The notes: generated from the sequence alone by a model not told the origin. Counted from the stretch's first letter, positions 12,060 to 18,020 are shown. The stretch: 64,000 bases of DNA from an uncultured Planctomycetota bacterium (GCA_963849325.1 CAWKHF010000004.1:320001-384000), one strand, 5' to 3'. Made by a program: numbers and translations.

Positions 12060-13569
12060 ATGCTGCCCGAATTCACACCGGCCGTCGCTCGCGCTTTGGA
12101 AGTAGCACAGGCCCACGCCCACGCGCTGGGCGCCGTGGAGATCCTCCCCCTCTACCTGGTGCATGGCCTGCTGGCGGAAGAAGAAGGGCGGGCCTTCGCG
12201 CTGGCGGTCGAGGCCGGGCTGGATGCCGTCGCCTTTCGAGCCCGTCGCACCTCTTGCGATAGCCCTCCTCCCTCCGAACGATCGCCGTTGCCGCTGCACC
12301 CGCGCGCAGTCGGCCTTTTTTGTTGCTCGGGATGTGGCCCGCGAGGCGACCGGCGAGAGTACGGTCGTCAGCGAAGCGCTGCTGCTGGCGCTTCTCCGCA
12401 CGGATGAGACGTTGGCCGCCGAACTGGAATCGTTCGGCCTGCGTCTGGCTGATCTGGAAGCCAGCATCCTTTCGCGCCGCCCGCCGCCCCCCCAGATCGA
12501 GGAGCCGCTTCACCTGGGCGACGTCACCGAGCACGTGGACACCGCCCGCATTCTCGATGCCTGCGCGAACCGCGCGCGGGAGGGGCTGCGCGTCGTCGAG
12601 GATTATTGCCGTTTCGTCCTCGACGATGCGTTTCTGAGCCGTTCCTTGAAGGAACTGCGCCACGATCTCACGTCGGTCCTGGCCGACCTTTCCGCCGACC
12701 TGCTTCTGGAGTCGCGCGAGACCCAGCGCGACGTCGGCACCGCGTTGACGACGCCGTCGGAGTTCGACCGCGCCTCGCTGCGCGACGTGGTAGGGGCCAA
12801 CTTGAAGCGATTGCAAGAGGCTTTGCGCAGCCTGGAAGAGTTCGGCAAGGTGCGCAATCCTCTTTGCGCTCAAGTGCTGGAGCAGTTGCGTTATCGCAGC
12901 TACACCCTGGAACGTGCCATCGTCCTCGGCGCGACGGCGCGTCATCGACTGGCAGGAGCGCGGCTCTACGTGTTGCTGTCGCGGTCCCGGTGCGCGGCCT
13001 CTCTCGACTGGACCATCGCCGAGGCGGCCGCCGGCGGGGCGCAGGTCGTGCAGTTGCGCGAGAAGGGCTTAACTGATCGTGAACTGCACGAGCGCGCCCG
13101 AGAGGTACGACACTGGACGCGGCAGGCCGGCGTCCTGTTCATCCTCAACGATCGTCCCGACATTGCCCGCCTGGTCGAGGCCGACGGCGTCCACCTCGGC
13201 CAGGACGATTTGCCCATCAAGGAAGCGCGTCGCATCCTCGGTCCCGATGCGCTCATTGGCGTCAGCACGCACAACCTGGAACAGCTGCGCCAGGCAATCC
13301 TCGACGGGGCCAGCTATGTCGGTGTCGGCCCGACCTTCCCGTCGGCGACCAAGGACTTCACGGACTTGGCGGGTCCGGAATTTGTGCGTCAGGCGTTGGC
13401 CGAGACGACGTTGCCGGCCTTCGTCATCGGCGGCGTCAATCCGAGTACGATTGATGCGGTCGTGGCGGCGGGAGCGCGTCGTGTGGCCGTCGGCCAGGCG
13501 ATCACCGCCGCGGACGATCCGCGCAGTGTGGCGTCGGCCCTGCTGGCCGCGCTGCCGACGGGCGCCTGA
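12060..13569 (+). CDS. thiE: Thiamine-phosphate synthase with N-terminal Clp-N-like and ThiD2-like domains (frameshift ~12250-12320)
   Basis: RILDACANRAREGLRVVED, VQLREK, ILNDRPDIA, GVHLGQDD, GPTFPSATK, IGGV. The N-terminus FTPAVARALEVAQ...LVHGLL resembles a Clp repeat. Confidence 0.85.
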
Positions 13570-13609
13570 GCGACGACCGAAAAGTTCACGCCGAATGAGG
13601 GCTTTTCCG

Positions 13610-13637
13610 TTGACAGACTTCTTCGCCGTCCTATAAT
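13610..13637 (+). promoter_or_regulatory. Consensus sigma70 promoter of the tRNA unit
   Basis: TTGACA (13610-13615), 16 bp spacer, TATAAT (13632-13637). Confidence 0.85.
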
Positions 13638-13682
13638 TCACTCTGCCCAACTGTCCCCCGGCACTCGTTGGTTGAGGTGTCC

Positions 13683-13721
13683 ATGGTTTTGATCTCCATC
13701 CACTCCGGCAAGACGAGGTGA
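13683..13721 (+). CDS. Putative attenuator leader peptide MVLISIHSGKTR
   Basis: GAGGTG at 13674-13679, then ATG GTT TTG ATC TCC ATC CAC TCC GGC AAG ACG AGG TGA. Confidence 0.55.
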   Translation: MVLISIHSGKTR

Positions 13722-13751
13722 AGCTCTATCCTTCCATCCCGAGCGGATAGG

Positions 13752-13779
13752 GCCAAACCTGTGTAGGTTTGGCTTTTTT
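13752..13779 (+). terminator. Intrinsic terminator between the promoter and tRNA-Ile
   Basis: GCCAAACCT-gtgt-AGGTTTGGC followed by TTTTTT. Confidence 0.75.
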
Positions 13780-13794
13780 GTTTACTAGACAACC

Positions 13795-13868
13795 GCGGGC
13801 ATAGCTCAGTTGGCTAGAGCGCAGCTCTGATAAAGCTGAGGTCCCAAGTTCGAATCTTGGTGCCCGCA
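13795..13868 (+). tRNA. tRNA-Ile (GAU)
   Basis: Acceptor GCGGGCA/TGCCCGC, anticodon arm CAGCT-CT GAT AA-AGCTG, GTTCGAAT T-loop. CCA is not encoded. Confidence 0.96.
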
Positions 13869-13916
13869 TTAGGTGGTGTATCGAGGAAATACTTGCGGTG
13901 GGACAAGGAACGCCCC

Positions 13917-14354
13917 ATGTCGAGACCAATAAACCCGCGTCCTCCGTGCCCGACCTGCGGCAAAACGATGAGTTGGCCTCGATCCCGCTTTTGCTCTCCA
14001 AAATGTCGCTTGGAATTGGATTATCAACGGTATATTGCACGGTGGCTTCAAGGCGAGGTTTCCGGCGGCAGGGCAGGCGGTAGAGTTTCTAGCCATGTGC
14101 GCCGTTGGCTTTTTGAAAGAGCCGAAAGCAAGTGTGAGCAGTGTGGCTGGAGTCGAGTTCATCCGATCACAGGACACATACCACTTGCTGTCCACCACAA
14201 GGATGGTGACTCGGAGAACCATCAGCCAGATAATTTGGAGTTGCTCTGTGGTGGTTGCCACATGCTGACTCCCAACTACGGAAAATTGAATCAAGGTCGA
14301 GGTCGCGCCAGACGGGTGGAGAAGTTGAGGCTGTTGGCAGTTGCGGGGATGTAG
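13917..14354 (+). CDS. HNH endonuclease with N-terminal Cys4 zinc-binding module
   Basis: CPTCG...FCSPKC; CEQCG...VHHKDGDSENHQPDNLELLCGGCH. Lower GC than the flanks. Confidence 0.88.
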   Translation: MSRPINPRPPCPTCGKTMSWPRSRFCSPKCRLELDYQRYIARWLQGEVSGGRAGGRVSSHVRRWLFERAESKCEQCGWSRVHPITGHIPLAVHHKDGDSENHQPDNLELLCGGCHMLTPNYGKLNQGRGRARRVEKLRLLAVAGM

Positions 14355-14417
14355 CTCAGTTGGGAGAGCGCGTGATTTGCATTCACGAGGTCAGGGGTTC
14401 GAACCCCCTCATCTCCA
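14345..14417 (+). tRNA. tRNA-Ala (UGC)
   Basis: GGGGATG/CATCTCC acceptor with G3:U70, anticodon arm CGTGA-TT TGC AT-TCACG, GTTCGAAC. Confidence 0.96.
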
Positions 14418-14420
14418 CAT

Positions 14421-14480
14421 AAGAAAAAATCAAAAAAAACAGCGGAGGGCATTGACAGAGAGAGAGGACATCGCTAGGAT
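14421..14480 (+). promoter_or_regulatory. rRNA-type promoter with A-tract UP element
   Basis: A-tracts 14421-14439, TTGACA 14452-14457, 17 bp spacer, TAGGAT 14475-14480. Confidence 0.7.
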
Positions 14481-14927: not shown

Positions 14928-17809
<2,882 letters not shown>

Positions 17810-17908
17810 ATTGATCCTGCTCTCGGACCCCCACCAGGGTCCGATCCTGGACGGACCATGCAGAGAGAATTGCGACTTCGACCGCTGCCAGATGATACAC
17901 GCAGAGCT

Positions 17909-18020
17909 TTCCCGGTGAGCAGACCTGGATGGCCCCACCCGTTCCCATTCCGAACACGGCCGTTAAGCATCCAGGGCCGATGGTAGTCCTTCGCGGGCGA
18001 GAGTAGGGTATCGCCGGGGA
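17909..18020 (+). rRNA. rrf: 5S rRNA
   Basis: CCCGTTCCCATTCCGAACACGG, GATGGTAGT, GAGAGTAGG; terminal stem cccggtg/tcgccggg. Confidence 0.95.

Follow-up and report, generated by a model that had tools for sequence, protein, structure and literature searches.

Leader peptide attenuators of the classical type precede the ilvGMEDA and ilvBN operons (ilvL and ivbL) as well as the trp, his, thr, leu and pheA genes, and all examples known to us regulate protein-coding genes. Transfer RNA (tRNA) genes are commonly viewed as controlled by promoter strength, growth rate and the stringent response. Here we analyzed the leader of the tRNA-Ile(GAU) gene in a 64,000-nucleotide (nt) stretch of DNA from an uncultured Planctomycetota bacterium (GCA_963849325.1, CAWKHF010000004.1:320001-384000; the whole stretch is referred to as the window) and compared it with the corresponding loci of related genomes. 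This comparison points, with a probability that we put at roughly 0.68, to a ribosome-mediated leader peptide transcription attenuator in which the sensor consists of AUU/AUC codons read by the tRNA-Ile(GAU) encoded downstream. By this route tRNA-Ile probably tunes its own synthesis through the speed of the ribosome on its codons.

The locus shares with the enterobacterial ilv, trp, his, thr, leu and pheA leaders a promoter, a short open reading frame (ORF) rich in the sensed codons, a stop codon beside the arm of a candidate antiterminator and a predicted U-tailed terminator. Unlike in those systems, the genes that would be regulated are a tRNA pair (together with ribosomal RNA, rRNA) and not enzymes, the sensed tRNA is the product, the leader ORF is shorter (mode 12 codons) with one to four scattered isoleucine (Ile) codons, and the overlap of the two hairpins amounts to only 5 nt plus an optional helix of 3-4 base pairs (bp), with no 1:2 helix found. 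What lies downstream is tRNA-Ile, tRNA-Ala, 23S and 5S rRNA in place of the enzyme, transporter or synthetase gene that a classical attenuator controls. Escherichia coli pheST with its pheM leader is likewise a case of leader peptide attenuation on a gene of the translation apparatus, but it has a protein target and adjusts charging, whereas the tRNA-Ile leader would adjust the amount of tRNA. T-box riboswitches are also cis leaders in which a choice between terminator and antiterminator reports on one tRNA, but their ligand is the uncharged tRNA itself, they work without a ribosome, and they are far larger and located before protein genes. When the leader (13560-13800) was searched with Rfam, by the gathering mode on the whole window and by the E-value mode, no family including T-box reached its gathering score, and the best match was to an unrelated small RNA (sRNA) family at 17.6 bits against a cut-off of 50. 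The Bacillus subtilis trp leader, with an antiterminator-terminator overlap of 4 nt, shows that so short an overlap at the base of a terminator can decide termination, although that switch is set by the RNA-binding protein TRAP and not by a ribosome. Outside the proteobacteria, transcription attenuation at ilvB1 controls branched-chain amino acid supply in Mycobacterium tuberculosis (PMC13236596); its target, unlike the one considered here, is an enzyme gene. In the full-text literature, with subscription journals and supplements outside the scope of the search, we found no leader peptide attenuator on a tRNA or rRNA operon and no account of Gemmata leaders. As a mechanism this falls into an established class; the novelty lies in its target, in a loop that refers back to itself and in a minimal design of two hairpins that lacks a 1:2 helix. 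That AUU/AUC decoding speed on the 12-codon leader governs transcription of the main tRNA-Ile(GAU), which would make this the first ribosome-mediated attenuator with a non-coding RNA as both product and effector, has in our estimate somewhat better than an even chance of being true.

Table 1. Features of the tRNA-Ile(GAU) locus, in window coordinates
Feature	Position	Strand	Remarks
ThiD2/thiamine-phosphate synthase (ThiD2/ThiE) fusion gene	12163-13569		upstream neighbor of the leader
sigma-70-type promoter TTGACA-16-TATAAT	13610..13637	+	-35 at 13610-13615, -10 at 13632-13637; 12/12 match
predicted 5' untranslated leader	13644..13682	+	transcription start inferred from sequence
Shine-Dalgarno sequence GAGGTG	13674-13679	+	read from sequence
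leader ORF, MVLISIHSGKTR plus TGA	13683..13721	+	12 sense codons, TGA at 13719-13721
Ile codons of the leader ORF	13692-13694, 13698-13700	+	both ATC
AGGU	13716..13719	+	last sense codon GG plus stop U; predicted outer antiterminator helix with ACCU 13757-13760
hairpin B, antiterminator core (candidate)	13723..13753	+	GCTCTATCC 13723-13731 / GGATAGGGC 13745-13753, 9 bp including one G-U; as RNA GCUCUAUCC / GGAUAGGGC
intrinsic terminator T (predicted)	13752..13783	+	GCCAAACCT 13752-13760 / AGGTTTGGC 13765-13773, loop GUGU, U6-G-U3
tRNA-Ile(GAU)	13795..13868	+	15 nt after the T6 run; reads AUC and AUU codons
tRNA-Ala(UGC)	14345..14418	+	second gene of the unit
promoter-like TTGACA-17-TAGGAT	14452..14480	+	after tRNA-Ala; 10/12 match; candidate second promoter for 23S-5S
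boxA-like TGTTCTTTGACAA	14689..14701	+	ahead of the 23S gene; also present in the 16S leader
23S and 5S rRNA	14929..18019	+	23S 14929-17809, 5S 17911-18019

Conservation of the leader module

A first reading of the locus, made from the sequence alone (the sequence-only reading), had described a perfect promoter and a Shine-Dalgarno (SD) sequence GAGGTG, a 12-codon ORF with two ATC codons, a 9-bp hairpin after the stop codon (hairpin B), a U-tailed terminator (T) 15 nt before the tRNA and a tRNA-Ile/tRNA-Ala unit. All of these were recovered in the present analysis (Table 1). Its reservation about a short SD spacing did not hold, since GAGGTG is complementary to CACCTC near the 3' end of the 16S rRNA and the GAGG core lies at an adequate 5 nt from the ATG. 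The same reading had proposed an Ile-sensing attenuator, together with a comparative test of the ORF, its ATC/ATT codons and the covariation of the hairpins. The ORF, these codons, the spacing from stop codon to hairpin, hairpin B (with covariation) and the U-tailed terminator turned out to be conserved before tRNA-Ile(GAU) across 59 genera, which supports that interpretation.

When 41 related genomes were searched by BLAST with positions 13570-13870, the leader itself could be aligned in eight, and in three others the alignment began at the terminator; the same module with quite different peptides was present in the upstream regions of relatives. A covariance model of hairpin and terminator (R1) was built from an alignment (A2) of 36 non-redundant sequences, from which one locus (L029) with its stem 112 nt from the tRNA and no ORF was left out. 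R1 matched the window genome once and, with one match each, 88 of 151 family genomes (the window's included) in 59 of 90 genera. When the order was sampled, matches were obtained in 85 of 135 family genomes and in 2 of 15 genomes of the sister family, and nothing credible appeared among 150 other genomes of the phylum, one of which had a weak match without a tRNA in 3 kb; many of the misses may reflect unassembled rRNA regions. A pattern scan of the species collection returned at least 120 stretches, mostly chance terminators in unrelated phyla. Among the matches listed, 22 stretches had tRNA-Ile(GAU) just downstream, and all 15 of these that were assigned by name came from planctomycetes, nine of them named Gemmataceae or Gemmata. 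Across the family the leader ORF, the spacing between stop codon and hairpin, the hairpin and the U-tailed terminator are conserved while the rest of the peptide drifts.

Contigs of relatives in an RNA library (X1), with about 88-90% identity, cover positions 13671-13773 and bridge T into tRNA-Ile. These are metatranscriptome contigs, which cannot show ends, strand or level, may derive from DNA and are uninformative where parts are uncovered. When RNA runs were matched to the window, each of them contained under 0.07 of its sequence words.

Isoleucine codons in the leader ORF

An ORF of 7-18 codons starting with ATG was present in 85 of the 88 family loci, and exactly 12 codons, the mode, were found in 37 of these 85. 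The three exceptions were a stop codon changed to TGG with the frame ending inside B, an indel and a TTG start. The leader stop is located 23-37 nt before the terminator (mode 30), the distance being 29-31 nt in 56/85 loci. In these 85 leaders Ile accounted for 182 of 967 codons (18.8%), compared to 3.1% in the long ORFs of the window genome, and ATH triplets numbered 182, 31 and 10 in frames 0, +1 and +2, respectively. At least one Ile codon was present in 84 of the leader ORFs and at least two in 64. The next commonest codon classes were Arg (100) and Thr (94), and Ala codons were not enriched (58/967). Among 55 representatives of peptide clusters (<50% identity), Ile made up 113 of 638 codons and 54 contained at least one, and an earlier, partly overlapping set of loci gave 74 Ile codons out of 373 with frame counts of 74/11/0.

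Closer examination of the Ile codons revealed 124 ATT, 57 ATC and a single ATA, all but one thus matching the GAU anticodon; decoding of ATT by this anticodon requires a G-U wobble. This preference is the opposite of that in the window genome, which favors ATC by about 4.7 to 1 (27,323 vs 5,837). In 67 related pairs Ile was retained at 90 of 156 positions and other residues at 180 of 572. Substitutions in the leaders of these pairs showed no bias among the codon positions (280/305/310), an even spread which argues that the peptide itself is not selected. As judged from these comparisons, the selected feature is the in-frame Ile codons and not a peptide. The distance to the stop codon was at least 18 nt for 124 of the 182 Ile codons and at least 15 nt for 153 of them, a distance at which a ribosome stalled there should not cover the hairpin.

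A part of the family carries Ile-Pro-Pro or Pro-x-(Asp/Asn)-Gly at the end of the leader peptide, as in ...IPPQGG, ...IDPPNG and ...IHPSDG (loci L205, L212, L215, L216, L219-L222, L225-L234 and L240). Pro-Pro motifs are sites of ribosome stalling, and the E. coli ilvL peptide contains IIIPPCG.

Hairpin B, terminator T and their shared nucleotides

The 5' arm of B begins 2 nt after the leader stop. In the alignment of 36 sequences 92.3% of the cells of this hairpin were paired and six of its nine pairs displayed two-sided changes, a value reached by 0 of 500 shuffles. The 87 family hits gave 92.8% paired cells, compensatory changes in seven of nine pairs and 85 compensatory cells vs 24.5 +/- 3.8 after shuffling, in an alignment that was fitted to the covariance model and is therefore biased toward it. 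The 5' arm of B is highly conserved in sequence. A possible second ORF across the hairpin, as seen by eye, is in frame in some loci and not in others.

The T stem of 9 bp, or 12 pairs with an A-U/G-U extension, is followed by a T6-G-T3 tract at 13774-13783. It was 98% paired yet almost invariant in sequence among the 36 sequences, 19 of which had been selected by that stem pattern. Across the 59 genera the stem GCCAAACC/GGTTTGGC is near-invariant, while the loop varies in sequence and length. T was considered as a generic genome repeat and rejected because its stem sequence occurs once in the 8.16-Mb genome (control pattern 0). A role of the stem as DNA operator for a dimeric protein is argued against by the half-site spacing, which varies from about 4 to 9 nt.

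In the window G13752 and C13753 are common to T and B. In nearly all of the 36 sequences the junction A-G-R-G-C can pair with either GCUCU at the start of B or GCUUU, consisting of the foot of T and the first U residues; the overlap of the hairpins noted in the sequence-only reading was thus present, although it comprised 5 nt and not the 2-3 nt given there. In addition, the structures predicted for the window include the AGGU:ACCU helix, which would form before the 3' arm of T is made. At position -2 from the stop codon G was present in 68 of 85 loci, and 48 of the 85 have GGT at -2 or -3. As GGU is complementary to ACC of the T 5' arm, a further GGU:ACC helix is possible in those 48 loci; it was predicted with a probability (P) above 0.5 in about 27 of 84 loci for RNA ending before the T 3' arm. 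A double pairing role of this ACC and of the GC in the same arm may explain part of the invariance of the T stem, and a factor binding the stem is another conceivable source of it.

Predicted folding of the switch

Folding was calculated with ViennaRNA for 84 loci, using a 28-nt ribosome mask as well as equilibrium and direct-path estimates. At equilibrium with the U tract included, the two basal pairs of T had a mean P of 0.78 without a ribosome; the value was 0.80 when the A site contained the last Ile codon and 0.99 when it contained the stop codon. For RNA ending at the 3' arm of T, the state in which the switch would be decided, the terminator was complete in 40 of the 84 loci when no ribosome was placed, in 35 when the ribosome was stalled at the last Ile codon and in 76 when it had reached the stop codon. 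In the window sequence, B was predicted to keep G13752 and C13753 if no ribosome was present or if it sat on the first Ile codon. T was then reduced to 7 bp, and G13772 and C13773, just before the U tract, were left unpaired, whereas a ribosome on the stop codon allowed the 9-bp T stem to form. The corresponding refolding barriers were 10.7 kcal/mol in the Ile-stalled state vs 2.9 kcal/mol with the ribosome on the stop codon. Folding with and without the ribosome-masked segment, as the sequence-only reading had suggested, gave the predicted switch in the window and, across loci, a complete T more often with the ribosome on the stop codon; the equilibrium difference was weak and the barriers did not separate the states across loci. 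These models only moderately support a ribosome-controlled switch, which would have to be kinetic.

Promoter and proposed regulated unit

The promoter of the window leader is the sole perfect 12/12 site between 12500 and 15500, a region containing four promoter-like sites vs 0.6 +/- 0.6 in shuffles, and a promoter-like site was present 5' of the leader ORF in 81 of 85 family loci. Its TATAAT-TCACTCTG portion resembles the promoter of the unlinked 16S gene, TTGACA-N17-TATACT-TCACTCTG. The hypothesis that T terminates the ThiD2/ThiE gene was rejected, since the conserved promoter sits between this gene and T.

In 77 of 88 family loci tRNA-Ile was found 14-72 nt (median 26) after the T stem, and five of the remaining 11 loci were cut by contig ends. 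At this distance there is in most loci no room for a promoter, and the gene should therefore be transcribed through T. In four of five closed family genomes the tRNA-Ile had a single match per genome, directly behind the element; in the fifth it was too diverged for the threshold used.

No 16S gene is located upstream of 23S-5S in the window genome. It resides on another contig, and the rrn operon is split. The sequence TGTTCTTTGACAA, which we take to be boxA, comes after the tRNAs and not in their leader, in contrast to an rrn antitermination leader. The role of boxA is Nus-dependent antitermination, and with the motif downstream of the tRNAs a polymerase crossing T should therefore not yet be resistant to termination. 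The GCTCT of hairpin B was considered as boxA and rejected, as the boxA-like TGTTCTTTGACAA stands elsewhere. A promoter-like site 18-64 nt after tRNA-Ala was detected with a strict pattern in 14 of 29 relatives, and the exact boxA-like motif in the loci of 14 of 29. The 23S-5S genes thus probably have their own promoter and boxA after tRNA-Ala. Given such a start of their own, the unit most directly controlled would be tRNA-Ile together with tRNA-Ala.

Proposed mechanism and alternative explanations

From these features we infer that the leader ORF is translated, that T terminates transcription, in which direction the switch works and to which physiological signal it responds. Transcription would start at the rrn-type promoter (13610-13637) and a ribosome would translate the 12-codon leader ORF. 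With charged tRNA-Ile(GAU) plentiful, the ribosome at the stop codon (13719-13721) would cover AGGU and the 5' arm of B; the 3' arm of B would then be free, the full T (13752-13773 plus the U tract) would form and transcription would end before the tRNA. If the ribosome lagged on the Ile codons, which are 18-27 nt before the stop in the window, or never loaded, B and the AGGU:ACCU helix would form first and hold G13752, C13753 and ACC of the T 5' arm. T would be cut to a 7-bp stem 2 nt off the U tract, and the polymerase would continue through tRNA-Ile and tRNA-Ala, in part as far as 23S-5S, so that tRNA-Ile would feed back on its own gene. If this is true, it represents a new route of tRNA homeostasis in which a tRNA gauges its own supply via a cis device. 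Its importance would be greatest where only one rRNA/tRNA-Ile locus exists and the rrn operon is split, and part of 23S-5S synthesis in such an operon would be linked to translational capacity. The element is small, sequence-defined and found in cultured Gemmataceae-like planctomycetes, and could serve as a compact sensor of tRNA-Ile charging.

Several observations weigh against Ile-codon attenuation. Of the 85 leader ORFs, 20 contain just one Ile codon and one lacks Ile altogether, long runs of Ile codons are rare, and an SD-like motif at -16 to -4 was present in only 41 loci. The folding energy of 13645-13795 is ordinary (z = -1.35, with 21 of 200 shuffles folding equally well). At equilibrium the basal-pair probability differed by more than 0.2 in only 27 of 84 loci, and direct-path refolding barriers over all loci had medians of 6.1 vs 5.4 kcal/mol, a difference of at least 2 kcal/mol being seen upward in 20 loci and downward in 18; as a test of the switch these barriers were dropped, since they did not separate the states across loci. 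No conserved partner for an anti-antiterminator such as the trp 1:2 helix was found in the leaders, so that, in contrast to the textbook arrangement, read-through is the prediction for a leader that is not translated. The element is also dispensable. In 4 of 4 family genomes without a hit but with an assembled tRNA-Ile the promoter abuts the tRNA (a fifth candidate, G114, matched tRNA-Arg and was uninformative), and in one genome of the window's own genus (G007, locus L013) the promoter directly precedes tRNA-Ile, with leader ORF, hairpin and terminator all missing; this looks like a recent loss, unless the sequence stems from another strain or a contaminant. It is also not obvious what a cell short of isoleucine itself would gain from additional tRNA. 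Finally, the invariance of the T stem is unusual for attenuators, and at the rimP leader invariance of a stem sequence was taken as an argument for a protein factor (PMC2965389).

This precedent, together with a T stem that is nearly invariant while its loop varies freely and a highly conserved 5' arm of B, would fit attenuation by a protein or trans-acting RNA that binds the GCCAAACC/GGUUUGGC stem or the GCUCUAUCC hairpin, with a minor or different role for the ORF. We consider this very unlikely, because it leaves the in-frame enrichment of Ile, the fixed ORF length and the fixed stop-hairpin spacing unexplained, whereas the dual pairing of GC and ACC in the 5' arm can give the invariance instead; there is also no linked candidate factor gene, only the immediate upstream gene (the ThiD2/ThiE fusion) having been checked. 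An unlikely explanation, too, is a sensor of general translation capacity, in which the arrival of the ribosome at the stop codon reports free ribosomes and elongation speed, and the Ile codons, mostly wobble-read ATT, are only slow timing codons. The output of tRNA and rRNA would then be tied to ribosome availability and not to tRNA-Ile in particular. The read-through predicted in folds without a ribosome (T complete in 40 of 84 loci only), the missing anti-antiterminator, the resemblance to the 16S promoter in an operon that continues into 23S-5S and the preference of the leaders for ATT over ATC (124 to 57) are in line with such a sensor. Against it stand the exact match between the enriched codons and the tRNA whose gene lies 14-72 nt downstream, the lack of enrichment in any other class of slow or rare codons (Ile 182, Arg 100, Thr 94) and the promoter that 23S-5S seem to have to themselves in 14 or more of 29 loci.

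The least likely alternative that we weighed regards promoter, ORF and terminator as a separate small gene, either for an sRNA such as the attenuator-derived rnTrpL or for a micropeptide, with the tRNA being transcribed via leak-through. When terminated, the leader would indeed yield a separate transcript of about 130 nt that has a hairpin at its 3' end, the RNA-library contigs of relatives over 13671-13773 agree weakly with one, and trans-acting attenuator RNAs have been reported from Sinorhizobium. The peptide, however, is unconserved and shows no third-position bias, the element is always joined to tRNA-Ile and occurs once per genome, and a tRNA that is essential and single-copy would lack its own promoter. 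Attenuation through the Ile codons is thus the explanation that we prefer.

Other features of the locus

In the 5' untranslated region (UTR) of the window leader, a copy of CTGTCC (13651-13663) can pair with the 3' arm of hairpin B, and this pairing appears in minimum-energy folds of the leader. Copies of this CTRTCC type are confined to the window and its two closest relatives, where they read CTATCC or TTATCC. The alignment of the 5' UTR over whole leaders was too poor to show a conserved SD-sequestering hairpin.

The unlinked 16S gene (contig C5:674055-675605 of the window genome G000, locus L152) is preceded by two promoter-like sites and a boxA-like TGTTCTTTGACAA, with a strong terminator just 3' of it, and no leader ORF or similar leader was found before it.

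The spacer between tRNA-Ile and tRNA-Ala comprises 476 nt (13869-14344) in the window, compared to 7-97 nt in 28 relatives. It contains an ORF of 145 amino acids (13917-14354) with weak matches to HNH_3 and a YacG-like zinc finger, both below the Pfam cut-offs, and the insert looks like an HNH-type endonuclease gene. An RNA-library contig of a relative joins the two tRNAs without an insert.

A second tRNA called Ile(GAT) in the window genome has a very different sequence and is part of an odd tRNA array. This tight array (G000 contig C1:515300-515900) consists of Leu-CAA, Glu-CTC, Glu-TTC, Ser-GGA, Ile-GAT and Val-GAC with gaps of 4-8 nt. Elsewhere in the same genome, ARAGORN also calls a tRNA-Stop(TTA) and two tRNAs with odd anticodons.

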